DNA of 64,000 nucleotides from a bacterium (GTDB taxonomy: Bacteria; Zhuqueibacterota; Zhuqueibacteria; Oceanimicrobiales; Oceanimicrobiaceae). The stretch lies in assembly GCA_046757525.1 (NCBI GenBank), contig JBHHYI010000001.1, positions 106,723 to 170,722 of the forward strand, read 5' to 3'. Both the position numbers and the translations under genes were made by a program. This document shows, in pieces, positions 5,378 through 64,000 of the stretch. Numbering within the stretch: the stretch's first letter is position 1; every line of letters begins with the position of its first letter. The notes under the pieces were generated by a model that saw nothing but the letters and a program-made list of their open reading frames with translations, was not told the DNA's origin and ran no database searches.

Positions 5378-6068
5378 AGCCACAGCAATTTCCCAAGGGG
5401 CGCATTTTGATTTTGAAAGGGGCGAAGTACTCAACATCAACAAGCCGGAGAATTGCACTTCGTTTGATGTCGTAAAGAGAATTCGCGCGCTGGTTGCAGT
5501 GAAAAAAGTGGGGCATGCTGGTACGCTGGACCCATTTGCACGGGGGGTTCTTTTGATTTGCACCGGGAAGGCCACCAAGCGCGTCTCGGACTTAGTGGAC
5601 TGTGACAAAGAGTATCTCGCCACCATTGAACTGGGCAAAGTCACCGACACGCTGGACCGAACCGGCACCATAATCAGGGAAACCGTCCCCCCGGTGTTTG
5701 ATCGGGCGACCATTCTGAGGGTTTGCAACCAGTTTACAGGCGAGATATGGCAGACCCCGCCAATGTATTCGGCCATCAAAATAAAGGGCCAGAGGCTGTA
5801 TGATTTGGCTCGCCGCGGCATGGTGGTCGACAGAAAGCCCAGAAAGGTGACCATTCACCATATTGAATTGCTCAACTTTGATTCCCCGCGGATGGAACTC
5901 AGAGTAACATGTTCCAAGGGGACCTATATTCGCGCTTTGGCTTACGACATCGGAGAAGAATTAGGTTGCGGGGCACATTTGAACGAACTGGTTCGTACGC
6001 GCATTGGACCGTACAAACTTGAGAATGCTTTTACTTTAAACAGATTTGAACGATTGTTGGCACATTAG
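5361..6068 (+). CDS. truB: tRNA pseudouridine(55) synthase TruB
   Basis: 235 aa. The translation has the TruB-like conserved motif HAGTLDPFARGVLLICTGKATK. Overlaps the rbfA end. Confidence 0.9.
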   Translation: MTRTDKATAISQGAHFDFERGEVLNINKPENCTSFDVVKRIRALVAVKKVGHAGTLDPFARGVLLICTGKATKRVSDLVDCDKEYLATIELGKVTDTLDRTGTIIRETVPPVFDRATILRVCNQFTGEIWQTPPMYSAIKIKGQRLYDLARRGMVVDRKPRKVTIHHIELLNFDSPRMELRVTCSKGTYIRALAYDIGEELGCGAHLNELVRTRIGPYKLENAFTLNRFERLLAH

Positions 6069-50946: not shown

Positions 50947-51555
50947 ATGGATAAAAATAAGACACTGAATCATGGTCAGGAGAAGATGTTAGAAGGCACC
51001 GCTCTGTTGCACCAGGGTGAATTGGAGCGAGCCCGAGAAAGCTATGCGAAAACTCTGGGGGGTGAACCTGAGAATCTCGAGGCCCTGTACGGAATTGGGA
51101 TGATTCACCAGCAGAGGAACGAATTTACGTCTGCCAGAGAATATTTTGAGAAGGCCTTGCAATGCGACGCAAACAATTCCCACCTGTTGAACAGCTTCGG
51201 GGTGGTGTCGGCCCATTTGGGCGACCGCGAGGCAGCCATTCATTCCTTTGAGAAAGCCATAGAATTGGACCCGGCTTTTGTCCAGGCAGAAAGAAACCTG
51301 GCCGAAATCTATATTGATTCAGGAGAATTTGAAAGGGGCGTAAAGCATTACATGGAAGCCTTGAAAAGGGATCCAGGAGATGTGGACACCTTGCTGGCCA
51401 TCGCGGAGCTTTATTTTGAAATCGGTGACTTTGAGTCAACAGAATTCATTCTCAAGCGAGTCCTGGAAATAGACCCTGAGAACGAATTCGCCAGAGAAGC
51501 CATCAAAATAAATTCAGCTAAGCTCGCCGCGCTTAGCCAGGTTGGACCGGAATAA
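50947..51555 (+). CDS. TPR-repeat protein
   Basis: 202 aa made of tandem TPR units. Confidence 0.7.
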   Translation: MDKNKTLNHGQEKMLEGTALLHQGELERARESYAKTLGGEPENLEALYGIGMIHQQRNEFTSAREYFEKALQCDANNSHLLNSFGVVSAHLGDREAAIHSFEKAIELDPAFVQAERNLAEIYIDSGEFERGVKHYMEALKRDPGDVDTLLAIAELYFEIGDFESTEFILKRVLEIDPENEFAREAIKINSAKLAALSQVGPE

Positions 51556-53272
51556 ACACCGGGTCGAGTTGCAGGTTACGGCTAAAATGAGAGGCAGCAA
51601 AAAAGAGATCGTAAGGCTCTTCAGGACGAACCAGGTGGAGCAGGCTTACCTGAGAGCAAAAGCTCTTTTGACGGAATTCCCCGCTGACTATGAGCTGCAT
51701 TACATCCTGGGCATGATCCATGGTTCGCAGTACCGCTATGTCGACGCCTTGCAATCCTTTAGTCGGGCCCTGACTTTCAACCCAGGGCACAGGCCGTCGC
51801 TGACCGAACGGGGCATTATTTTTATGACGCTCAGACGGGATCGCCAGGCCCTGGCCGAGTTTCGTGAAGCGCTCAGAGTCGATCCTCTTGCGCACGACGT
51901 CTGTCATTATGTCCGTGAAATCGAAAGACGAATGAAGCCAGTGGAGCCGACCCTTGCCGCCTGTCTCATCGTAAAAAATGAAGCAAAACACCTGCCTAAC
52001 TGCTTGAAGAGTATTCAGGCTGTGGTGGACGAGATGGTGGTGGTAGACACCGGCTCTGAAGATGCCACTCCAGAAATCGCACGGCAATTCGGCGCCCGGG
52101 TCGTGCAGTTTGAGTGGCGGAAGGATTTCGCTGCTGCCAGAAATTTTGCCATAAGACAGGCTGAGAGCGATTGGATTTTGCAAATAGATGCGGACGAAGA
52201 GCTGTTTCCCGAAGACCAATACAAGATTCGTGAGATCATCCACCAGAGGGATTGTAACGGGGCCTTTGTAGCAATGAGAAATAGAAACTCGAGCCTGTTT
52301 GGCGAGAACCCGTGCACGGTTCACTACCTGGTGCGCCTCTACCGCAACCACAGATCGATCTATTATGTCAATCCCATTCATGAAACGTTGAAGATATCCG
52401 GTGAGGTTGTTGCCACCGACATCAATTTCCTGCATCACGGCTATAATTTGGACGCCGAGTACATGAAGCAGAAACGACGGCGAAACGCCGAGATCCTGTA
52501 TCAAAGGTTGCAATCTGACCCGAGCAACATTACCACCCTGTTTTATCTTTCCATGATGCATTTGGGCAATGAAGAATATGACCAGGCTGGAATCTACGCA
52601 AAGCAGGTCCTGGAGAAGCTGAGTCCCCAGGACGCGAAGAAGCAGCATTTTTATTTGATGATGCTCAACAATCTGGCCTGGATTCATGTAGAAAAGCAAA
52701 ACTATGCGTTGGTGCAGAAATACTGCGAGCAGGCCATTGCTATAAACAGCAATTACTTAGATCCCCAATTCTTTTTAGGCCTGAGCTATTTTAAGGAGGA
52801 ACAGTATGAGAAAGCCAGGGAGACCTTTGAAAGATTCCTGAAGAAATATGGAGAGATCACACAAAACCCTGTGTTTAATTTGTTTGCCCATTCGTCTCAT
52901 GCCTATTTGTACCAGGTTTATCACCTCCTGGGCAAGATATCTCGAAGAGAAAAGAACTATCCCGTGGCGCAAAGGATGATGTTGAAGGCGATCGAGAGCA
53001 ACCCCAATTTCTGGATCGGGTATGCGGACCTGGGTTACCTAAGCATGGACCTGAGCGAGTGGCAAAAAGCTGCTCACTATTTGTCGACGGCCGTCAGCAT
53101 TGCGAAAAAGAGCCCGCACGTCAACAGGAACAATAGAGTCGTTTGGTTTGATTTTTTTAACCTGTTGAAGAATTATGTTGCGGTGCTAAAAAAATGTGCC
53201 GGCGCGGCAAAAGCGGCTCCTGTTAGCGTATCTTCAACCGTGCGCCAAGAATCAAATGCTGAACAGAGTTAG
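51542..53272 (+). CDS. Glycosyltransferase family 2 domain fused to TPR repeats (paralog 1)
   Basis: GT2 motifs …CLIVKNEAKHLPNCLKSIQAVVDEMVVVDTGSEDAT…ILQIDADEELF…. The start is uncertain (TTG 51542 or ATG 51587). Confidence 0.75.
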   Translation: MDRNKHRVELQVTAKMRGSKKEIVRLFRTNQVEQAYLRAKALLTEFPADYELHYILGMIHGSQYRYVDALQSFSRALTFNPGHRPSLTERGIIFMTLRRDRQALAEFREALRVDPLAHDVCHYVREIERRMKPVEPTLAACLIVKNEAKHLPNCLKSIQAVVDEMVVVDTGSEDATPEIARQFGARVVQFEWRKDFAAARNFAIRQAESDWILQIDADEELFPEDQYKIREIIHQRDCNGAFVAMRNRNSSLFGENPCTVHYLVRLYRNHRSIYYVNPIHETLKISGEVVATDINFLHHGYNLDAEYMKQKRRRNAEILYQRLQSDPSNITTLFYLSMMHLGNEEYDQAGIYAKQVLEKLSPQDAKKQHFYLMMLNNLAWIHVEKQNYALVQKYCEQAIAINSNYLDPQFFLGLSYFKEEQYEKARETFERFLKKYGEITQNPVFNLFAHSSHAYLYQVYHLLGKISRREKNYPVAQRMMLKAIESNPNFWIGYADLGYLSMDLSEWQKAAHYLSTAVSIAKKSPHVNRNNRVVWFDFFNLLKNYVAVLKKCAGAAKAAPVSVSSTVRQESNAEQS

Positions 53273-53287
53273 AAAATTGGAGTGCCA

Positions 53288-54709
53288 ATGGAATATGGCT
53301 TCAAGCATGGGAAGCCCACCCTTTCGCTTTGCATGATCGTCAAGAACGAGGCAAGGTACCTGGAGGCGTGTCTCAAAAGTGTGGCAGATTTGGTGGATGA
53401 AATCATCGTGGTCGACACCGGGTCCACCGACGCTACTTTGGACATTGCTCGAAGATTCAAGGCAAGAATCTACCATTACCCGTGGACCCAAGACTTCGCA
53501 GCCGCGCGCAATGAAAGCCTCAAACACGCCACAAGCGACTGGATCCTCTATTTGGATGCCGACGAGCGATTGGAAGCCAGGAGCAAGCGTGAGTTGCTTG
53601 GGCTTTTGAGAAACAAATCCATTCTGTGTGTCAATGTACTGATCGATAGCCCGCTTAGGGACTCCAGGAAAGGACACATCAGTCGGTCGCACCGCTTGTT
53701 CCGCAACTTACCCGGGATCAGATTCTCTGGCCGAGTCCATGAACAGATTTCGCCTTCGATCGCCGGGTTAAAAGGGAAAGAATGTTTTTCTACCATCAGG
53801 CTGAAGCATCTGGGCTACGCAAAGGACGCGCCTGAGATGTCGAAGAAAAGCCGCCGCAATTATGAGCTGCTGCAACTGCAAATCAGGGACGAGCCAGTCA
53901 ATGCCTACTGGCATTTCAGTTTGGCACAGAATCAGATTCTGAGCCAAAAATACCGGGAGGCCAGGGAATCGCTCGGCATCGCCTTAAGAATTGGCGGCCT
54001 GCCGGAAGACATTTTATGCTCCATTTACAACAATCTGTCGGAAGTTCATCTCAAATTGGCAAAACTCGACGAGGCCATAAGCTACGCTGAAAGAGCTCTG
54101 TCGATAACGCCGAATCAATGTACAGCGCACCTGCTGCTATTTCAGATTTACCAAACTCAGGGCAACAAGAAAAAACAACTCGAGTCACTGGAGGCAGCCG
54201 TCGGAGTTGTAGAGGGGCAGAAGACCGGGCAGCAAAAAGTCTCGGTGGAAGCGTATGTGGATCGGGCGGCACTCTACGTCAGTTTGGCAGGGCTTTATTT
54301 GCAAGAGAACCGCGTTGCGGAGGCCCGCGGTTATTTCCAAAGAGCCTTGCGGATCGATCCGGACAATGTCAGCGCATTGAACGGCCTGGCGGATTGTTTA
54401 TTAGAGGAAAGGAGATTCATTGAAGCCAGCAAAATCCTGGAGCATCTCGATTTGGTCAGTCCGGAAGATTTAGCAAGGAAGGAAAAGCTGGCCTGGCTTG
54501 CGATCAAGTTGGGCAATTACCCGAGAGCCATCGAGATTTACAAACATCTCCTTGAAATAGAACCGCACAATGTTGTCTTGAACAGACAGATGGCCGCCTT
54601 ATGCCACAAGATTGGCTTGACCGCCCAGGCCAGGAGGTATCTTGCCAAAGCAAAACGTCATTCCCATAGCTCTGTTGCATCCGAGACGACTGCGCAGGTC
54701 CTGCCTTAA
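53288..54709 (+). CDS. Glycosyltransferase family 2 domain fused to TPR repeats (paralog 2)
   Basis: ATG 53288 with GGAG 6 nt upstream. …LCMIVKNEARYLEACLKSVADLVDEIIVVDTGSTDAT…LYLDADERLE… closely parallels the preceding gene. Confidence 0.75.
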   Translation: MEYGFKHGKPTLSLCMIVKNEARYLEACLKSVADLVDEIIVVDTGSTDATLDIARRFKARIYHYPWTQDFAAARNESLKHATSDWILYLDADERLEARSKRELLGLLRNKSILCVNVLIDSPLRDSRKGHISRSHRLFRNLPGIRFSGRVHEQISPSIAGLKGKECFSTIRLKHLGYAKDAPEMSKKSRRNYELLQLQIRDEPVNAYWHFSLAQNQILSQKYREARESLGIALRIGGLPEDILCSIYNNLSEVHLKLAKLDEAISYAERALSITPNQCTAHLLLFQIYQTQGNKKKQLESLEAAVGVVEGQKTGQQKVSVEAYVDRAALYVSLAGLYLQENRVAEARGYFQRALRIDPDNVSALNGLADCLLEERRFIEASKILEHLDLVSPEDLARKEKLAWLAIKLGNYPRAIEIYKHLLEIEPHNVVLNRQMAALCHKIGLTAQARRYLAKAKRHSHSSVASETTAQVLP

Positions 54710-55050: not shown

Positions 55051-57981
55051 ATGGCTAAAACACGCTACTTTTTAATTGCGGTGATTGTTGCGTTTTCGCT
55101 GTTTTTCTTGCACCAGGAAACACGTGCGCAGTCCACTTATGTTGGCACGGAGACGTGCAACAATTGCCACGGCAAAGAAGCCAATTTTGCGGGCAATCAA
55201 TGGGCTACCTGGGTCAAGACCCGGCATAACATGAAATGGCGGGATCCTGACGAAGGGTTAGGCGTGGTTGCCCATGATTACTTCGTCAACAACCTGGATC
55301 TGTCTACGGATCCGGACTTCGCTGCTTTCGGGGCGAACGCGCCCAAGCTCAGCTTCGACCCCTCTGATCCGGCGGATTCCACCGACGGTAAGAGCGGCTA
55401 CCGCGTCACGGTTGGTGCCACAACCTACGAGGTGAACTGGACGCTGGGTGGTACCGGTGTCTGGAAACAGCGTTACATGACGGAGATTGGCAACAGCATC
55501 TACATTCTGCCCATTCAGTACAATGAAACAACCGACGACTGGGTGCCTTATCATCCCCCCACCTGGTATGACAGCAACAACCAGCCGTTGGCAGAGGTTC
55601 CCAAGGCGGACTCTTACCAACGCCGCTGTATCGGCTGCCACTCGGTCAATCCTGTGGTGAGCTTCAACGATAGCACTGGAGAGTGGACCGCCACGGTGAC
55701 CGAGCGCAATATTGGCTGCGAAGACTGCCACGGTCCCGGAAGTGAACACGCTCAAACCACGGACAAGACCAAGATCATAAATCCCGAAACCGATCTCACC
55801 AACAAAGACAGACGCCTGGAAGTCTGCGGCGCCTGCCACGGCCGCGGTTCCAGCACCGCCACTCTGGGCGGCAAAAACTTTGGCTTCCCTTACAACGATG
55901 CCAATGGCCACTATCGACCTGGCGAGGTATTGGCCGATTATTACAACCAAACGACGTCGTCTTCTAACTTTTGGCCCAATGAACAGCCTTACGGCCGGAA
56001 TTCCAAATCGCACCACCAACAATATCTCGACTTCTTGACCAGCGCCCATTACAGCAATCCGTTCGAGGAGATCAACTGCTGGACCTGTCACGATCCACAT
56101 GGGGGCACGGGCCAGGAGTTTCTAATCCGGGACAAGCTGGTGGAAGACGGCGTGGAGATCGCTACGACCAACGATGACAACACCCTTTGCCTGGCTTGTC
56201 ACGCGGAATTCGAGCCCTTCGATCTGATTAGCAAAGAAATGGTAGCAGACCCCACGGGAGCCAATTTGGAAACCATCAAAGCCGTGGTAGAAACTCACAC
56301 GAAGCATCCTTATGATCCTACGGGCACTGGGGCCAGTAGGTGCACCAAGTGCCACGATCCAAAGGTCGCCAAGTCGGCGATCGAATACGACATCCATTCC
56401 CACTCCTTTTGGGTGATGTCCCCGGAACAAACGCTTACCTATCAGCCTGAAGGCGGGGTGCCAAATTCCTGTGCGGTGAGCTGCCACAGAAAGGCCGAGT
56501 TCCCGAATTTTGGCATGGACCTGTCTGGCGACGTTCTCAAGACCTGGACAGAATCTACCGATATCGCCCTGGCCGATACTCTGCAACGCTTTTTGGGTGC
56601 TGGAGGCTATTGGTGGGATACGGATCCGTCTGGCAACATGGGTGATCCCCTGTTGGTCAAGCGGGTCGATACCATGCCAACCATCGATGGTGACGATTCC
56701 GATGCGGCCTGGGCCGGCGCACAAGAAACGACCCTGGCCAACGGTGCTACCATCAAGGCTGTGAACAATTCGGACATGGTGGCCTTTTTGGTCAAGTGGA
56801 GCGATCCTACCATGAGCATGACGCGCGGCGGCTCCTGGCAGTGGGTGAGCGGCGCCTGGGTTAAAACCAATGCCACGGAAGAAGGCGGTGCTAATGAAGA
56901 TCGCTTCAACATCTTGTGGAACATCAACATAAGTGAATTTGGCCAGAGAGGCTGTGCCACCAAATGTCATGGTCAGGAAGGCAATGCCACAGGGGCTTAC
57001 CTGGATAAAGTGGGCGAATATGCCGACATGTGGCACATGAAGGCCTCACGGGCTCTGCCCGCGATCAGCTCTTCACAATCCGACAATTTGACTTTCAGCA
57101 CTTCTGACGCGACCGACCAGCATCAGGTGACCAGCGGAACCATCATTCTCAACGGTTACGCCGACGACAAACTCACGGCAGCCCGACTGGATCCGGCTTA
57201 CCCATTCGATCCGGAGGACGGCGGACGTCATGGTGACAGCGGCACGGCCATGTTTCGCCACAACCGCAACTCCGACAAAACCGCTCCCATGTACATTGAA
57301 ACCGCACCAACCAACTACATCGACGGCATGGTGCTCTACCAGTCGGAAATTGACAACGGTGAAGCGGTGGAAGTTGCCAGTTTATCTACCCAGCAGATCG
57401 ACCAGGCCTGGGCGGCGTACGCTGCGGTCAACGCAGTGGTGCCTGAGCGGATCATGCAACAGCCGGCTGGCAGCCGCGGCGATGTGCGGGAAGCGGCAAA
57501 ATGGGAAAACGGCCAGTGGACCGCAGAATATGAACGCGCCCTGGTGACTAACAACGTCGACGACGTCCAATTCGACGACTTGACCAAGGGCTACCTCTTT
57601 GGAACGTCTATCATGGACAACTCGGGTGGCGATAAGCACAACATCTCTGCGCGCTTAAATGAATTGCGCTTCGACGAGTTTGTTGGCATCGAAACGCCCG
57701 GCGCCGACAATCTGCCATCCCAGTATGCGTTGTTGCAAAACTATCCCAATCCATTCAATCCCACGACCAAAATACGCTTTACCCTCAGGAAAAGTGGATT
57801 GGTGAAGCTTAGAGTTTTCAACATGTTAGGTCAGCAGGTCAAAACGCTGGTCTATCAGCAACTTCCGGCCGGTCAGTATGAGGTTCCATTTGATGCGTCG
57901 CAATTCTCTTCCGGTTTGTATTTGTACAGACTTGAAGTGAACGGTTTCACGCAGGTGAAAAAAATGGTGTTGGCCAAGTAA
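55051..57981 (+). CDS. Secreted multiheme cytochrome c (7 CXXCH + 2 CX3CH) with a type IX secretion system C-terminal sorting domain
   Basis: Signal peptide MAKTRYFLIAVIVAFSLFFLHQETRAQS. Heme motifs CNNCH, CIGCH, CEDCH, CGACH, CWTCH, CLACH, CTKCH, CAVSCH and CATKCH. C-terminal …NYPNPFNPTTKIRFTL…YLYRLEVNGFTQVKKMVLAK, the Por_Secre_tail signature. Confidence 0.85.
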   Translation: MAKTRYFLIAVIVAFSLFFLHQETRAQSTYVGTETCNNCHGKEANFAGNQWATWVKTRHNMKWRDPDEGLGVVAHDYFVNNLDLSTDPDFAAFGANAPKLSFDPSDPADSTDGKSGYRVTVGATTYEVNWTLGGTGVWKQRYMTEIGNSIYILPIQYNETTDDWVPYHPPTWYDSNNQPLAEVPKADSYQRRCIGCHSVNPVVSFNDSTGEWTATVTERNIGCEDCHGPGSEHAQTTDKTKIINPETDLTNKDRRLEVCGACHGRGSSTATLGGKNFGFPYNDANGHYRPGEVLADYYNQTTSSSNFWPNEQPYGRNSKSHHQQYLDFLTSAHYSNPFEEINCWTCHDPHGGTGQEFLIRDKLVEDGVEIATTNDDNTLCLACHAEFEPFDLISKEMVADPTGANLETIKAVVETHTKHPYDPTGTGASRCTKCHDPKVAKSAIEYDIHSHSFWVMSPEQTLTYQPEGGVPNSCAVSCHRKAEFPNFGMDLSGDVLKTWTESTDIALADTLQRFLGAGGYWWDTDPSGNMGDPLLVKRVDTMPTIDGDDSDAAWAGAQETTLANGATIKAVNNSDMVAFLVKWSDPTMSMTRGGSWQWVSGAWVKTNATEEGGANEDRFNILWNINISEFGQRGCATKCHGQEGNATGAYLDKVGEYADMWHMKASRALPAISSSQSDNLTFSTSDATDQHQVTSGTIILNGYADDKLTAARLDPAYPFDPEDGGRHGDSGTAMFRHNRNSDKTAPMYIETAPTNYIDGMVLYQSEIDNGEAVEVASLSTQQIDQAWAAYAAVNAVVPERIMQQPAGSRGDVREAAKWENGQWTAEYERALVTNNVDDVQFDDLTKGYLFGTSIMDNSGGDKHNISARLNELRFDEFVGIETPGADNLPSQYALLQNYPNPFNPTTKIRFTLRKSGLVKLRVFNMLGQQVKTLVYQQLPAGQYEVPFDASQFSSGLYLYRLEVNGFTQVKKMVLAK

Positions 57982-58028: not shown

Positions 58029-58063
58029 AAGGGTCGGCCGCTCAGGTCGACCCTTATTTTAAT
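58029..58063 (+). terminator. Rho-independent terminator after the cytochrome gene
   Basis: AAGGGTCG-(loop)-CGACCCTT followed by ATTTTAATT. Confidence 0.7.
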
Positions 58064-58246: not shown

Positions 58247-58606
58247 GTGGAAGCAAGGGTCTTACTCGTTTGTAATGATGAAAATTGCCGAAAAGGGTTG
58301 ATGCATTTGTTCAAGGGGAGCGGGTTGTCCATTCACGGTGTCTTAGGGGATGCCGATCTGCTTCTCGAAATCTTGGACCGCGAATATGATTTGGTGATCT
58401 ACGACTTGGAATCATCCAACAAGGATGGGCTCAAATTAATCAAAATAATGCGAAGAATTAGGCCCAAGGTTCCGCTGCTGGTCATTTCCAGCGATCCTTC
58501 AAAGAAGCTGGGCGGTAAGGTTTTGCAAGAGGGTGTGACTTATTATTCCGTAAAGCCGATTGAACCTGCTGGTTTTAAGGAGGCCGTGTTGACTATCCTC
58601 AAGTGA
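58247..58606 (+). CDS. Atypical CheY-like receiver domain protein (acidic pocket NDE instead of DD), first gene of the respiratory operon
   Basis: …VLLVCNDEN…DLVIYDLESSNKDGL…LLVISSD…VKP. Overlaps the next gene by 4 nt. Confidence 0.55.
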   Translation: MEARVLLVCNDENCRKGLMHLFKGSGLSIHGVLGDADLLLEILDREYDLVIYDLESSNKDGLKLIKIMRRIRPKVPLLVISSDPSKKLGGKVLQEGVTYYSVKPIEPAGFKEAVLTILK

Positions 58607-58653
58607 CCAACCTGACAAGGACTCGTTGCCTGTGGATTACAATTTGGACTAAA

Positions 58654-59154
58654 ATGAACAATTCAATTTCGAATATTCTTTGTTCCCTAATTGCAGTATT
58701 AATCGCAGGCTTGCTAAGCAGTTCTGAGAAGGAGCCGGTGCAGCCGATCGCCTACAACCACAACAAGCACGTCGAGGAGGCTGGTATGGAGTGCCTGGAC
58801 TGCCACAAATATGCTGAAGAGAACGCGCGTGCGTCGATTCCAAACATCGAAGTGTGCCAGGATTGTCACGATGAGGCGTTATCTGACAGCGAAGCGGAAA
58901 AAACTTTAGTCGCCTACATCAAGAATAAGAAAAGGATACCCTGGCAACAAAACTACTTCGTCCCCGATTATGCTTACTTTTCTCACCGACGACATGTGAA
59001 GCTGGGGAAACTGGATTGCGCCGTTTGCCATGGCGATGTTGCAAAACTTACCAGGCCGATAAGCCAACCATTTGTCAAAATGAAAATGGACTGGTGCAGG
59101 GACTGTCACGAACAAAGAAAGGTATCCAATGATTGTTACGCTTGCCACAGATAG
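58654..59154 (+). CDS. Membrane-anchored pentaheme cytochrome c (ActA/QrcA-like)
   Basis: Trimmed to ATG 58654, whose N-terminus is a signal-anchor. Five CXXCH motifs (CLDCH, CQDCH, CAVCH, CRDCH, CYACH). Confidence 0.75.
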   Translation: MNNSISNILCSLIAVLIAGLLSSSEKEPVQPIAYNHNKHVEEAGMECLDCHKYAEENARASIPNIEVCQDCHDEALSDSEAEKTLVAYIKNKKRIPWQQNYFVPDYAYFSHRRHVKLGKLDCAVCHGDVAKLTRPISQPFVKMKMDWCRDCHEQRKVSNDCYACHR

Positions 59155-59173
59155 GACTTACTAAAGATTGGTT

Positions 59174-61657
59174 ATGCTGATTTCTCGCAGAGCGTTTTTG
59201 AAGTATTTGGGCATTGCGTCTGCCGGAATCCCGCTCAGCGGTTTGGGGTGTGATTCAAGGTGGTCTGTGCCTGACGAACTTCTCGGAAAAGTGGCTGGAG
59301 CTCCTCGTCTTGAAAGCTGGAAAACGAGCGTTTGCAGCCTGTGTCCCGCAGGCTGTGGCATCAAAGTGCGGTTAATCGACAGCATTCCCGTGCGGATTCA
59401 TGGCAATCCTATTCATCCGGTTAATCGAGGTGGCATCTGTCCCGTCGCTGAAGCAGGAGTCGAGGCCTTGTTTAATCCGGATAGAATCAAACAACCTTTA
59501 AAGCGAGTTGGCGAGCGTGGAGAAGATAAATGGCAAAGCATCTCCTGGAAAGAGGCGATACAAACAGTCGTCTCCCGTCTGCAAGCCTTAAGAGAGAAGA
59601 AAGAAGCGCAGAAATTGACTTTTTGGTCCGGGCATGAAAACAATCTGCTCGCTGGCTTGATCGAAAGATTTGTGCAAAACTTTGGTTCGCCCAATCTGTT
59701 TGTTTTTGGAGAAACCAATCTCTCATCTTGGGCGACTTACTTAACCCAGGGGCATAGGAATCCATTGGGATACGATTTTGAGAATATTAAGCTCCTGATC
59801 AACTTTGGGGCGGATTTGTTGGACGTTGGCCCAACTCCTGTTCGGTTTAATCAACTTTACTCAGAATTAAGAAATCGCGGCAATGGATCCAGAGCGAAGA
59901 TCATTCATATCGACTCTCGTCTTTCCCGTACCGCCGGCAATTCTGACGAATGGATACCGATTCAACCGGGGACAATGGCAGGTTTGGCGCTGGGAATGGC
60001 CAACGTCTTGATTAAAGATGGCCAGTACGACAAGGATTTTGTGAAAGCATACAGTTTTGGGTTTGAGGACTGGAAGGATAGCGAGGGTGCTTCCCATCAG
60101 GGGTTCAAATCTTTGGTTGAACAGGAATACTATCCAGAAAAAGTGGCCGATATCACCGGCGTTTCGGCCTCAAAAATAGTCACGTTAGCACGAGAGTTCG
60201 GTGCTGAGGAGTCGGCTTTAGTTGTGGCGGGCGGACAGGCCGCAAATAGCACCAATGCTCTTTACACGCTTTGGGCGATTGAATGTTTGAATGCCCTGAA
60301 GGGCAATTTCAAGGAAGAGGGGCCGGTATCCTTTGTAAAGTTACCTCCCTTTGCTGCACTTCCGGACGAGGAAAAAGATGAAATCGCTTCAAAAGGGTTG
60401 AGCCATCCAAAGCTGACCCAATCGATTGAAGATTTCTGTTTTCCGGAAGATGCCGTTTCCCGTCTGCCCAGTATGATCCTGGCTAAGCAGCCAATTCCTA
60501 TCGAGGTGCTCTTTCTCGCAAATGTGAATCCAGTGTTTGATTCGATCAATCAGGACGATTTCATTGCCGTTCTAAAAGAAATTCCTTTCATTGTGAGTTT
60601 TTCTCCATTTGTCGATGAAACGACCGCCTATGCTGATCTGATTTTGCCCGACCATAGCTTCTTAGAAAAGTATGAAGTTTATTACAACACTCCAACAGTG
60701 GAATTTTCACATTTTGGCATGCAGCAGCCCATCATTGAGCCGCTGTTCAACACCCACAACGTCGGAGATGTGATTTTGGAAATTGCTCACAATCTTGGCG
60801 GCGTGCAGGCTTCTTCCTTTCCCTGGGCGAATTATCACGAATATATCCAATCTCGGTTAGAAGGTATTTACAAGACTGGGGCTGGAACCATATTTACGGA
60901 GCGCATGGATGAAGCCTGGTTGAAATTCTTGAAAGAGCGGGGCTGGCAGATATTCGAATACACGAGTTTCAGTGAGTTCTGGGACGTTCTGTTAGATAAA
61001 GGGGGGTGGTTGGATCCATTTCCAACGAACACCCACTTTAGTAGAAGTTTCAAAACCCCATCCGGAAAATATGAATTTTATTCACAAGTATTGGAACATG
61101 AAATCAAGGCACAAATACAGGCTAATAAGGCACAGAATGACGCCTTGAATCACAGGTTGGAAAACTGGGGAGTAGATGCCCGGGGCGATGTCGTGTTTCT
61201 TCCGCATTTTGAAACGCCAAAGTTGGAGGATGGCGGTGATAAATTCTCCTTGCATCTGCTTACCTACAATTTGATTACGAACTCAAATGGCATGGCAAGC
61301 AATCTGCCACTAATGCAGGAGTTGTTTGGGCTGCTCACTCGAGAATACTGGCAGTCGTGGCTGGAGGTCAATCCCGAAACCGCCCATAAGTATGGCATAA
61401 GCGATGGGGATACGGTTAAGGTGACGTCCTCCCGAGGGAGTTTACACGTCAAGGTAAAGATACTGCCGGGGATCATGCCCGACGTTGTGCACCTTCCTTT
61501 TGGACTTGGACATAAAGCCTATGGGCGATATGCCAGGGGAATTGGCGTCAATCCGTTTGAGATTCTCGTGGAGGAATATGATGGCTTGAGCGGCAGCCCT
61601 TCTTTGATTTCGACCAAGGTCACGATAGCTAAAGTGAAGGGAAAGGGGAGAGCGTAA
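59174..61657 (+). CDS. Tat-exported molybdopterin-oxidoreductase-family (CISM) large subunit (ActB1/QrcB/PsrA-like)
   Basis: Twin-arginine motif SRRAFLKYLG. FS0 [4Fe-4S] motif CSLCPAGCG…C. About 828 aa, MopB-like. Confidence 0.75.
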   Translation: MLISRRAFLKYLGIASAGIPLSGLGCDSRWSVPDELLGKVAGAPRLESWKTSVCSLCPAGCGIKVRLIDSIPVRIHGNPIHPVNRGGICPVAEAGVEALFNPDRIKQPLKRVGERGEDKWQSISWKEAIQTVVSRLQALREKKEAQKLTFWSGHENNLLAGLIERFVQNFGSPNLFVFGETNLSSWATYLTQGHRNPLGYDFENIKLLINFGADLLDVGPTPVRFNQLYSELRNRGNGSRAKIIHIDSRLSRTAGNSDEWIPIQPGTMAGLALGMANVLIKDGQYDKDFVKAYSFGFEDWKDSEGASHQGFKSLVEQEYYPEKVADITGVSASKIVTLAREFGAEESALVVAGGQAANSTNALYTLWAIECLNALKGNFKEEGPVSFVKLPPFAALPDEEKDEIASKGLSHPKLTQSIEDFCFPEDAVSRLPSMILAKQPIPIEVLFLANVNPVFDSINQDDFIAVLKEIPFIVSFSPFVDETTAYADLILPDHSFLEKYEVYYNTPTVEFSHFGMQQPIIEPLFNTHNVGDVILEIAHNLGGVQASSFPWANYHEYIQSRLEGIYKTGAGTIFTERMDEAWLKFLKERGWQIFEYTSFSEFWDVLLDKGGWLDPFPTNTHFSRSFKTPSGKYEFYSQVLEHEIKAQIQANKAQNDALNHRLENWGVDARGDVVFLPHFETPKLEDGGDKFSLHLLTYNLITNSNGMASNLPLMQELFGLLTREYWQSWLEVNPETAHKYGISDGDTVKVTSSRGSLHVKVKILPGIMPDVVHLPFGLGHKAYGRYARGIGVNPFEILVEEYDGLSGSPSLISTKVTIAKVKGKGRA

Positions 61658-61658
61658 T

Positions 61659-62342
61659 ATGCCGAGATGGGGCATGGTCATCGATTTGAATAAGTGCACA
61701 GGTTGTGGTGAATGTGTTGCTGCATGCAAAGTAGAAAACAATGTGGCCATCGTAGGACCAGGGGAGTCCGCAAAAGAGCGAACCATGCTCTGGATGGACA
61801 TCCTTACCCTGTATGAAGGGGAATTTCCACACGTAAAAGTGCGTCATATCCCGCGACCCTGTTTTCATTGCGATAATCCGCCTTGCACCAAAGTGTGCCC
61901 TGTGCGAGCAACTTATCTCAACGAAGAGGGCATTGTGACTCAGATATTTCCCCAGTGTATTGGATGTCGATATTGTATGGCAGCCTGTCCTTATACTGTC
62001 AAGTCATTTAACTGGTACAAACCGGAATGGCCCGCAGAAATGGCTGCGGCCTGTAATCCTGATGTTTCTGTTCGCCCTGTGGGAGTCGTGGAAAAGTGTA
62101 CCTTTTGCATCCATCGGCTCCAGAAGGCCAAAGAACAGGCGGCGGCTGAGGAGCGAGAACTGGAGGAGAGAGATTACGTTCCGGCTTGCGTCGAAAGCTG
62201 CCCAACTAAAGCCATGTACTTTGGGGATTTAGATAGTCATAAAAGTGAGGTAACCAGGTTGATAAGAAGCCCTCGCGCTTTTCGGATGTTGGAAGATTTG
62301 GGCACAGAGCCTAAGGTCTATTATTTGTCTGAGGTGGAATAA
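61659..62342 (+). CDS. 4Fe-4S ferredoxin-type subunit (ActB2/QrcC/PsrB-like)
   Basis: Four Cys clusters (CTGCGECVAAC…, CFHCDNPPCTKVCP, CIGCRYCMAACP, CTFCIHR…C…CP). Confidence 0.85.
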   Translation: MPRWGMVIDLNKCTGCGECVAACKVENNVAIVGPGESAKERTMLWMDILTLYEGEFPHVKVRHIPRPCFHCDNPPCTKVCPVRATYLNEEGIVTQIFPQCIGCRYCMAACPYTVKSFNWYKPEWPAEMAAACNPDVSVRPVGVVEKCTFCIHRLQKAKEQAAAEERELEERDYVPACVESCPTKAMYFGDLDSHKSEVTRLIRSPRAFRMLEDLGTEPKVYYLSEVE

Positions 62343-63704
62343 ATGGCCGAACATCAACAAAGCACATTCGAAGATGAAGACCTGGTGCGTCCCATCGCAC
62401 AGACTGGGGCGGGTTTTTATGCCATGGTTGTCATATTAGTAGGAGTGATTGCTTTTGCTGGCTATGCTTACATCAGGCAAGTGTTTTTTGGCTTGGGTGT
62501 CACAGGTTTGGCGCAACCGGTATCGTGGGGATTCTATATCATCAACTTCGTTTTTTTTATTGGCATAAGTCATGCGGGGACCCTTATCTCGGCAATTCTC
62601 AGACTCTCGAAGGCAGAGTGGCGGCGTCCTATCACCCGCATGGCGGAAGTGATCACTGCGATTGTGTTGGCCATCGGTGGACTTCATCCAATTCTTGATT
62701 TAGGCCGCCCGGATCGTATGTTGCATCTTGTCAGCAGCGGACGTTTGCAGTCTCCATTACTTTGGGATGTTACCAGTATTACCGCCTATTTTGCTGCCAG
62801 TACCGTGTATCTGTACATTCCCATGATTCCGGATATCGCAATTTTGCGTGACCGTGGCATGAAACCACGCTGGCTTTACGAGTTCTTGGCCTGGGGCTGG
62901 CAGGGCACCGAACATCAGAAGAGGGTACTCGAAAGGGCAATCAACATCCTCATGATCATGGTCATTCCAATTGCTGTTTCTGTTCACACCGTCATTTCGT
63001 TCATATTTTCCATGACCCTTCAGCCCGGATGGCATAGCACGATTTTTGGCCCTTATTTTGTGGTAGGCGCTATTTTTTCTGGCATTGCCGCGCTGCTGAT
63101 TGTCATGATTGTTTTTCGAAAAGCATTTCATCTGGAAAAATATCTCAAAGAAATCCACTTTAATTATCTATCTATATTACTTCTAATCATGTCGGTGTTG
63201 TGGTTCTATTTCACCTTTTCTGAATATCTCACCGGGTATTATGGACACGAACCGAATGAAATGAGAGTTTTCTTTTACAAATTCATTGGCGACTTCTCCC
63301 CATTCTTTTGGTTAATGATTATGTGTAATTTTATCATTCCGATGGCCATACTGGTAAACCCAAAAACCAGAAAGGTTTCGGGCATCCTTATCGCTTCCAT
63401 TTCTGTGGTTATCGGAATGTGGTTGGAAAGACTCATAATTGTCGTCCCATCTTTGGCGAATCCAAGGTTGCCTTACCCCACGGGTATTTATGTTCCGACG
63501 TTGACGGAGTGGAGTCTTTTTGCCGGTGGTGTGGCTGCATTTATCTTAGGATATTTGATTTTTGCAAAATTATTTCCTTTGATTTCAATCTGGGAAATTC
63601 AAGAAGGGAGACGACACAGTGTTGAGGAGGTAGCCAGGCGGCTGAAATCCTATCTGCCTGAGCAGTCCCATGGCGAAATACTAAGTCCAGGCGCCGGAGC
63701 ATAA
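62343..63704 (+). CDS. NrfD/PsrC-family polytopic quinone-interacting membrane subunit (ActC/QrcD-like)
   Basis: 453 aa, about 10 predicted TM helices. Start is adjacent to the FeS gene stop. Confidence 0.8.
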   Translation: MAEHQQSTFEDEDLVRPIAQTGAGFYAMVVILVGVIAFAGYAYIRQVFFGLGVTGLAQPVSWGFYIINFVFFIGISHAGTLISAILRLSKAEWRRPITRMAEVITAIVLAIGGLHPILDLGRPDRMLHLVSSGRLQSPLLWDVTSITAYFAASTVYLYIPMIPDIAILRDRGMKPRWLYEFLAWGWQGTEHQKRVLERAINILMIMVIPIAVSVHTVISFIFSMTLQPGWHSTIFGPYFVVGAIFSGIAALLIVMIVFRKAFHLEKYLKEIHFNYLSILLLIMSVLWFYFTFSEYLTGYYGHEPNEMRVFFYKFIGDFSPFFWLMIMCNFIIPMAILVNPKTRKVSGILIASISVVIGMWLERLIIVVPSLANPRLPYPTGIYVPTLTEWSLFAGGVAAFILGYLIFAKLFPLISIWEIQEGRRHSVEEVARRLKSYLPEQSHGEILSPGAGA

Positions 63705-63706
63705 GA

Positions 63707-63949
63707 ATGAAAAACAAAAAGCGAATTTTTTGGTTGCAGATTGCCTCAGTTTCCTTGATCTGGATTTTTGTCCTGAGCGTGGCAATTTGGATTTTGAAGT
63801 TGATTAAAGTTTCCCATGAACTAAACGATGCACTTAACGCGTCGGTTGCGATCAGCATCGTGGCGATTCCAGTGTTTTTCACTTTGGCTTCGGTGCTAAC
63901 CTATGTTTTTGTCGGTCTGCAAAAAGGCCGGGGTGGTGAAAGCAATTGA
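63707..63949 (+). CDS. Small (80 aa) two-TM membrane protein, possible accessory subunit
   Basis: Starts 2 nt after the NrfD-like gene. Two hydrophobic helices. Confidence 0.35.
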   Translation: MKNKKRIFWLQIASVSLIWIFVLSVAIWILKLIKVSHELNDALNASVAISIVAIPVFFTLASVLTYVFVGLQKGRGGESN

Positions 63950-64000
63950 GCCTGGGAAAGGGCGTCAGGTCATCTTCTTACTTAGGAGTCGACAAAATGG

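Follow-up and report, generated by a model that had tools for sequence, protein, structure and literature searches.

A putative alternative complex III-like operon with a degenerate molybdopterin-family subunit in a cytochrome-rich island of an Oceanimicrobiaceae genome

What kind of respiratory complex is specified by an operon that brings together a pentahaem cytochrome, an exported molybdopterin-family (MopB) protein, a four-cluster Fe-S protein and an NrfD-type membrane subunit? This question is raised by a locus in a bacterium of the family Oceanimicrobiaceae (Zhuqueibacterota), located in contig JBHHYI010000001.1 of the assembly GCA_046757525.1. The window, i.e., the whole stretch of DNA that was analysed, comprises 64,000 nt (positions 106,723 to 170,722 of the contig), and all coordinates refer to it. 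An initial annotation had assigned the operon either to the architecture of alternative complex III (ACIII) or to that of the Qrc quinone reductase, and had proposed that, together with a neighbouring secreted cytochrome, it links the menaquinone pool to the cell surface. The six open reading frames (ORFs) predicted between 58247 and 63949 have been confirmed with unchanged boundaries, all of them on the forward (+) strand. The explanation that we favour, with moderate confidence, is that the operon encodes the core of an ACIII-like respiratory complex, a quinol:cytochrome c oxidoreductase that would feed periplasmic cytochromes and whose MopB subunit would be non-catalytic.

The identity of three subunits carries most of this explanation. 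The gene of the ActA-like pentahaem cytochrome c (58603..59154) likely starts at the ATG at 58654, which gives a product of 166 amino acids (aa). This cytochrome, of the c7/c3 type, contains five CxxCH motifs and a single N-terminal transmembrane (TM) helix (residues 21-39) as membrane anchor, and its top four matches in the PDB are ActA chains (6f0k_A, 8k9e_A, 6btm_A, and 6lod_A; E 2.5e-22 to 4e-19). The Fe-S subunit (61659..62342), of the ActB2/QrcC-like kind, lacks a signal peptide of its own and is matched best, over its full length, by the C-terminal domain of ActB (6f0k_B, residues 797-1025; E 1.8e-57), while ArrB and PsrB match only its N-terminal half. All 16 Cys of its four ferredoxin-like cluster motifs are present. 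A reading of these 16 Cys as four [4Fe-4S] clusters, in contrast to the 3Fe-4S cluster of ACIII, was dropped, since genuine QrcC also has 16 Cys; QrcC has been listed with a 3Fe-4S cluster despite them (PMC8076601). The membrane subunit (62343..63704; Pfam NrfD, E 2e-36) finds ActC in the PDB (6f0k_C, E 1.7e-71; ActC chains down to 1e-65), followed at a distance by ActF (5e-11), and PsrC is missing from its hit list at E <= 0.01. A simple hydropathy scan of this protein gives nine segments, and it aligns end to end with ActC, which has 10 TM helices. The matches of these three subunits to ActA, ActB2, and ActC make the complex ACIII-like and not a Psr/Arr-type reductase. From the pentahaem cytochrome gene through the last small ORF, the intergenic gaps measure 0–13 nt, which is consistent with a single transcription unit.

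Qrc itself was evaluated with the NCBIfam equivalog models, whose cut-offs are 180 (QrcA), 440 (QrcB), 400 (QrcC), and 570 bits (QrcD). A Desulfobacteraceae control locus (L070) passes all four, with 219, 524, 427, and 658 bits, and thus the test is able to detect Qrc. The corresponding proteins of the operon reach 109, 332, 305, and 37 bits, all below cut-off, and membership in Qrc was rejected. Of the two architectures initially considered, therefore, the ACIII-like one holds and Qrc proper does not; the accompanying statement that this is not a standard Psr/Ttr reductase agrees with ActA, ActB2, and ActC being the best solved-structure matches for three subunits.

The likeness to ActC includes its functional residues. 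When the channel and quinol residues listed for ActC of Rhodothermus marinus (PMC5928083) were mapped onto the alignment with the query, the 14 residues of the cytoplasmic half-channel were all found to be identical, as were five of the six of the periplasmic half-channel. Within the quinol pocket, Asp169 is retained along with the hydrophobic residues, and three positions are replaced (H139 by D119, D253 by I221, and Y323 by T291). Every member of the family shows the resulting D/I(V)/T signature, in place of the H/D/Y of canonical ActC. In a neighbour-joining tree, the NrfD family is sister to canonical ActC and not inside it; the NrfD subunits of related enzymes that bear the Mo-ligand Cys branch deeper, and QrcD lies far outside. 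The protein can thus be described as an ActC-like subunit with a putative quinol/quinone site and putative proton channels.

To judge from the sequences, the complex is ACIII-like in these three subunits and Arr/Qrc-like in the fourth, the large MopB protein of 829 aa (59168..61657; ActB1/QrcB-like). It shows three molybdopterin-oxidoreductase Pfam domains, a twin-arginine translocation (Tat) motif, SRRAFLK, and the FS0 cluster motif C56-x2-C59-x3-C63-x27-C91, and it is encoded apart from the Fe-S subunit, as had been annotated. A lipobox-like sequence, LSGLGC28, follows the Tat motif (59168-59260, residues 1-30), with a Cys that is conserved in the closest relatives; the subunit may be a Tat-exported lipoprotein. 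In the PDB, it matches ArrA over its full length (E 2e-71, 244 bits) and PsrA (1.5e-45), with only 45-76 bits for ActB. An AlphaFold 2 model (predicted local distance difference test, pLDDT, 86.6) superposes on ArrA at a template modelling (TM) score of 0.81, and its 50 best fold matches do not include ActB.

The residues of the Mo site have been lost from this enzyme-like frame. In HMMER alignments, the Mo-ligand Cys of ArrA (HSSVC) and PsrA (SLC) corresponds to a gap in the query, whose ligand loop is shortened (FVFGE-TNLSSW), and no Cys, Ser, Asp, or selenocysteine is conserved at this loop within its clade. The Lys of the CPKG motif, which follows the fourth FS0 Cys and links FS0 to the pterin, is lost both in the group of the query and in genuine QrcB. 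Among 252 columns conserved at >=90% in the Cys-bearing relatives, 64% are kept by the group of the query and 66% by bona fide QrcB, and the FS0 cysteines are invariant in all three groups. A large subunit with every Mo-site residue, clustering with the Psr/Ttr/Sre enzymes, had been named at the outset as the mark of a conventional periplasmic reductase; what was found is a subunit devoid of both the ligand Cys and the FS0-pterin Lys. Most probably, then, this MopB no longer carries out Mo chemistry, and these losses point to the absence of a Mo/pterin cofactor. Its role would probably be that of a scaffold and of a Tat carrier for the signal-less Fe-S subunit, and possibly that of a holder of FS0.

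Does the operon end with these subunits? According to the initial annotation, only an ORF of 80 aa follows (63707..63949), and no actD, actE, or actF. The first statement is an artefact of the window edge, where a tetrahaem class-I cytochrome c gene begins, with its first four bases inside the window (63997..64000, + strand). The continuation could be followed on public Logan contigs, two of which encode the NrfD protein residue for residue. Over 5398 nt, the contig L001 has 3 mismatches to the window, and it therefore comes from the same strain; its position 5450 corresponds to 63997, and it gives a view of about 11.5 kb past the window end. After the 80-aa ORF, the contig carries the tetrahaem cytochrome of 415 aa (4 CxxCH; PF00034, E 8e-30), a c554-like tetrahaem cytochrome of 196 aa, a cyclic nucleotide monophosphate (cNMP)-binding protein, another class-I cytochrome with four haems, a Rieske protein with a cytochrome b, a C-terminally anchored cytochrome with nine haems, a DUF2339 membrane protein, and a further multihaem cytochrome. 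More than 10 kb of electron-transfer genes thus lie beyond the tetrahaem cytochrome gene, and the operon stands at the front of a larger island, rich in cytochromes, which extends past the window end.

The small protein, with two TM helices, is conserved across phyla at a mean column identity of 51%; ten residues are invariant, and several of these lie in the inter-helix loop. A scan of 1.84 billion proteins gave 55 cluster representatives as its relatives. In two of them, the natural fusions P0243 (477 aa) and P0283 (445 aa), it is joined to a tetrahaem cytochrome of the downstream type, made of four repeats, each with GCxxCH and WNH-x-P-x-M; fused ActDE proteins are known from Ignavibacterium and Melioribacter (PMC3362086; PMC5492636). 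Given the gene order and these ActDE-like fusions, the small protein can be taken as a conserved subunit and, by its position, as an analogue of ActD; with the tetrahaem cytochrome it forms the positional, and probably also functional, counterpart of ActD/ActE. Homology was sought and rejected in both cases: a profile of 19 sequences of the small subunit gave only chance hits in the PDB, and the cytochrome found only generic class-I cytochromes. Because the window ends four bases into the next gene, the claim that no actD/E/F follow was wrong for the first two genes, whose positional counterparts are present; only ActF is missing.

The same arrangement has been found in other bacteria. Among 80 related loci from GTDB species representatives, whose neighbourhoods were annotated by script, the six-gene module (ActA, MopB, Fe-S, NrfD, small TM protein, and tetrahaem cytochrome) recurs in KSB1/Calditrichota, Ignavibacteria/Bacteroidota, Rhodothermales, and Fidelibacterota, and also in some Desulfobacterota and Proteobacteria. 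By identity of MopB, the closest GTDB genomes are an uncultured Calditrichaceae metagenome-assembled genome (MAG; 72%), an unclassified MAG (71%), and a KSB1 MAG (67%), followed by Ignavibacteria and Bacteroidota (42-45%). Very often the module adjoins c554-like cytochromes and a Rieske/cytochrome b pair accompanied by a cytochrome of 9 to 11 haems. The survey also bears on the Mo site. An HSS-IC-type MopB motif is kept in 15 loci, none of which has an upstream pentahaem ActA gene and whose NrfD proteins are more distant; conversely, in loci with the pentahaem gene the motif is almost always missing. Thirteen of the loci form a three-subunit sister group with the HSSIC motif and without the cytochrome gene (L022, L029, L032, L038, L047, L056, L057, L064, L065, L067, L068, L071, and L074), hosted by Methylomirabilota, Chloroflexota, Aigarchaeota-like archaea, and others. 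Its best NCBIfam match is ArrA (436 bits, far below the cut-off of 1600); the group is an uncharacterised clade of Arr/Psr-like molybdoenzymes.

These data suggest a scheme for the working of the complex. The MopB protein, bearing the sole Tat signal, would export itself together with the signal-less Fe-S subunit, both folded, and the pair would dock on the ActC-like subunit. Electrons would then pass from the Fe-S clusters to the membrane-anchored pentahaem cytochrome, and from it to the tetrahaem class-I cytochrome c, held by or associated with the 2-TM subunit, and onward to cytochromes, both soluble and membrane-bound, whose genes lie downstream. The ActC-type channels would take up or translocate protons and so make this an energy-conserving step. 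The terminal acceptor might be extracellular, reached through the neighbouring type IX secretion system (T9SS) cytochrome; Pfam scans of 20 neighbouring genes gave no terminal oxidase, nitrite reductase, or nitrous-oxide reductase by which an acceptor could be named. The direction of electron flow, the proton pumping, the absence of the cofactor, and the acceptor are inferences.

Several observations weigh against an ACIII-like quinol:cytochrome c oxidoreductase with a non-catalytic MopB. Of the three charged residues at the quinol site of ActC, two (His139 and Asp253) are replaced throughout the family. The large subunit retains a complete ArrA-like fold of four domains and the FS0 cysteines, and canonical ActB1 binds no cofactor (PMC5928083). 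ActF is absent; neither the 58 kb upstream nor the 11.5 kb downstream contains a second NrfD-like ORF. Neither the small subunit nor the tetrahaem cytochrome has detectable homology to ActD or ActE, respectively. The trees are neighbour-joining only, a crude method, and sequence alone fixes no direction of electron flow. Arsenite oxidase binds Mo without a protein ligand, and the loss of the Cys is thus no proof of the loss of the cofactor.

Beside the operon, a secreted T9SS multihaem cytochrome of 976 aa (55051..57981, + strand) raises a further possibility, namely that operon and cytochrome form one module for extracellular electron transfer, through which electrons from menaquinol would reach the cell surface. 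We regard this extension as doubtful, although a quinone-to-surface route would be plausible. The cytochrome contains seven CxxCH motifs plus CAVSCH and CATKCH, the Pfam domains EB_dh (haem-b/DOMON-like, E 4e-19) and Por_Secre_tail (E 2e-9), and a type-A C-terminal sorting domain (TIGR04183, 41.6 bits; cut-off 23). Its homologues number more than 1000, those with a named source coming from Calditrichota, KSB1, Chlorobi/Ignavibacteria, Bacteroidota, and Glassbacteria MAGs. In favour of the link, such a cytochrome adjoins the module in the window and in two related loci (L004 and L005) and, in another order, in a third (L085); EB_dh proteins or related octahaem cytochromes stand beside the module in Fidelibacterota and Chloroflexi; and no terminal oxidase or N-oxide reductase turned up in the scanned neighbouring genes. 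Against it, the gene ends 266 nt before the operon and is followed directly by a terminator-like hairpin (58029..58055, + strand; 11-bp stem with 7 G-C pairs and a T-rich tail), although such sites are not enriched in number (3 in 4.8 kb vs 6.2 expected from shuffles). Its place between the two units is telling all the same, and suggests separate transcription of the cytochrome gene. Moreover, the cytochrome is not beside the module in L003, the closest GTDB relative, nor in L084 and L086, and its homologues P0125 (63% identity) and P0143 have no module nearby. No outer-membrane conduit has been identified; the most constant neighbours of the module are not surface proteins but periplasmic cytochromes and a Rieske/cytochrome b complex; and a literature search on T9SS, multihaem cytochromes, and extracellular electron transfer gave no precedent. 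Class-I cytochrome c domains are commonly His/Met-ligated and of high potential, and a tetrahaem subunit built of them fits high-potential partners better than Fe(III) oxides. The association hints that, in part of the lineage, the two are functionally linked, but it is far from proof.

Some related loci show further variants of this neighbourhood. In L085 (1-19824; ENA ERZ21828280 contig-100_391), the ACIII-like module lies upstream of two T9SS-sorted cytochromes, which are followed by CcmH, DsbD, and a fusion of cytochrome c with an FTR1 iron permease. In a Fidelibacterota locus (L024, 16096-17061), a stand-alone EB_dh protein is encoded just downstream of the module and is followed by a 13-haem cytochrome, and the EB_dh domain is thus a recurrent neighbour of the module even when it is not fused to a cytochrome. 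In Anaerolineae (L026, L030, L034, and L037), MopB, Fe-S, and NrfD genes without ActA precede a cytochrome of eight haems, a relative of the haem domain that the T9SS cytochrome of the window contains.

Another rival to the favoured direction is the same complex working in reverse, as a cytochrome c:menaquinone reductase that would take electrons from surface or periplasmic cytochromes, maybe with Fe(II) or a mineral as donor, and pass them to the quinone pool. This alternative seems unlikely, but it has several points on its side. The three periplasmic subunits have their best NCBIfam scores with the Qrc models (QrcB, QrcC, and QrcA, at the values given above), and Asp occupies the position of ActC His139 in both the query and QrcD. 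The MopB protein has the same FS0 motif, CX2CX3CX27C, as the separately encoded ActB1 of iron oxidisers, which has been assigned to an "ACIII-Qrc clade" (PMC4643136). The closest named relative, the KSB1 MAG OFTM177 (L005), comes from a study of subsea-tunnel biofilms linked to iron and manganese oxidation (PMC10732223), and the FTR1 fusion of L085 lies in a related island. On the other hand, the membrane subunit is far from QrcD both in score and in the tree and has the full channel set of ActC, whereas in QrcD the periplasmic half-channel could not be observed (PMC6303296). No Cyc2-type or porin-cytochrome gene has been seen in the stretches examined.

A conventional periplasmic Psr/Arr-type molybdoenzyme with an extra cytochrome, its catalysis residing in the large subunit, is very improbable: ArrA is indeed the best sequence and fold match of this subunit, its four MopB domains and FS0 are all retained, and the HSSIC sister clades look like real enzymes, but the ligand loop offers no conserved ligand, the Lys between FS0 and pterin is gone, the degree of degeneration matches QrcB, no TorD/DmsD-type chaperone gene has been seen among the cluster genes examined, and the partner subunits are of the ActB2/ActC type, with PsrC outside the reported matches.

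How does the complex compare with systems already described? With the ACIII structures of R. marinus (6F0K), Flavobacterium johnsoniae (6BTM), and Roseiflexus (6LOD), it shares the anchored pentahaem ActA, the ActB2-type Fe-S module including its C-terminal extension, the 10-TM-helix ActC-type subunit with the whole cytoplasmic proton-channel set, and, after actC, a 2-TM subunit followed by a c-type cytochrome, sometimes fused as ActDE. It differs from them in the separate MopB and Fe-S genes, in keeping the FS0 Cys and an ArrA-like fold, in the D/I/T residues at the positions of H139/D253/Y323, and in the absence of ActF, although ACIII variants without this subunit have been reported, e.g., in Caldithrix abyssi (PMC5317091). 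Further differences are the small subunit, which lacks sequence similarity to ActD and the cytoplasmic domains of this protein (a 2-TM-helix subunit with cytoplasmic beta-alpha-beta motifs), the four haems of the cytochrome against one in ActE, and the complete set of 16 Fe-S Cys, one of which is Thr in R. marinus ActB. With QrcABCD, the menaquinone reductase of sulfate reducers, it has in common the gene order (cytochrome, MopB-like, Fe-S, and NrfD proteins), the separate B and C genes, a degenerate MopB with FS0 Cys, a 16-Cys Fe-S subunit, and about 36% identity of the B subunit; it departs from Qrc in a membrane subunit of another clade, in the additional small TM and tetrahaem subunits, and in hosts that are not sulfate reducers. 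With the three-subunit Arr/Psr molybdoenzymes, it shares the sequence and fold of the large subunit, Tat export, a four-cluster Fe-S protein, and an NrfD-family anchor. Here, in contrast, the large subunit has lost the Mo-ligand Cys and the Lys between FS0 and pterin, the Fe-S and NrfD proteins belong to the ActB2/ActC type, and an ABC architecture without multihaem subunit is extended by a pentahaem gene directly upstream and a tetrahaem one downstream.

Two kinds of ACIII-like cluster are known from genome surveys. In neutrophilic iron oxidisers, an actAB1B2CDEF cluster has been described in which ActB1 and ActB2 are split and ActB1 carries the same FS0 motif (PMC4643136); unlike the present operon, it has ActF and a monohaem ActE. 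In MBNT15, "ActABCD plus a four-haem ActE-like protein" is encoded beside multihaem cytochromes, and a role in iron reduction has been suggested (PMC9386147), so that the tetrahaem ActE-like protein is a shared feature. Both kinds of cluster lie, like the one studied here, away from oxidase genes and beside multihaem cytochromes, with a proposed role in iron redox reactions, and from their published descriptions they would belong to the same clade (PMC4643136; PMC9386147). A link between ACIII and Fe(III) reduction in Melioribacter roseus was not borne out by the corresponding report (PMC5492636). In four of the related loci (L009, L013, L014, and L020), a second module lies upstream on the same islands, composed of a six-haem NapC/NirT-like protein, a cytochrome with eight haems, an Fe-S protein, and an NrfD protein of lesser length; similar "cytochrome plus Fe-S/NrfD" complexes have been mentioned for Melioribacter (PMC9386147).

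The operon proper is preceded, in the same set of genes, by a stand-alone CheY-like receiver of 119 aa (58247..58606; PF00072, E 2e-12). Its D52, S81, and K103 align with D57, T87, and K109 of CheY, and the acidic pair is displaced with a two-position shift (C9-N10-D11-E12), as the initial remark on an atypical "NDE" pocket had it. In L004, a homologue is encoded upstream of the T9SS cytochrome; in L005, there is none between the T9SS cytochrome and ActA genes; in close relatives, the gene is thus moved or missing. The receiver is probably a lineage-specific regulator and not a subunit. The redox island starts at 55051, and the genes upstream of it are translation genes, a flagellar cluster, and two GT2-TPR proteins. 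The flagellar cluster is long (about 17800-51555) and includes FlgK, flagellin-N, and other Flg/Fli/Flh-like ORFs; after it come the two paralogous proteins, which combine a GT2 glycosyltransferase with tetratricopeptide repeats (TPR; 51542-53272 and 53282-54709).

The module is a widespread and biochemically unstudied variant of ACIII and not a new kind of machine; nothing in it would surprise a specialist, and MAG papers have mentioned clusters that resemble it. Nevertheless, four of its features may not have been set out before: the tight inverse relation of pentahaem gene and Mo-ligand motif, the D/I/T signature that the quinol site shows throughout the family, the small subunit with its conservation and its fusions, and the partial association with T9SS-sorted cytochromes. 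As regards the last of these, it is conceivable, but improbable in our judgement, that in KSB1/Calditrichota-like bacteria of the Fibrobacterota-Chlorobiota-Bacteroidota (FCB) group a T9SS-anchored multihaem/EB_dh cytochrome is the terminal or entry point of an extracellular chain, wired to menaquinone by an ActF-less, FS0-retaining ACIII-like complex; if true, this would be a design for extracellular electron transfer without an Mtr- or Omc-type porin-cytochrome conduit. In evolutionary terms, the family is intermediate between true Arr/Psr-like molybdoenzymes and the cofactor-free ACIII/Qrc complexes, with the Mo ligand lost exactly where the pentahaem cytochrome has been gained and with the enzyme fold, FS0, and the proton-channel set all kept. 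It could therefore show the conversion of a periplasmic reductase into a quinol:cytochrome c coupling site, and it would show which parts of ACIII are dispensable (ActF, the cytoplasmic domain of ActD, and the 3Fe-4S cluster). Finally, the module is widespread in uncultured FCB-group bacteria, Desulfobacterota, and other lineages, always among multihaem cytochromes, and it may be a common point of entry or exit, so far unrecognised, in respiration linked to metals or minerals.

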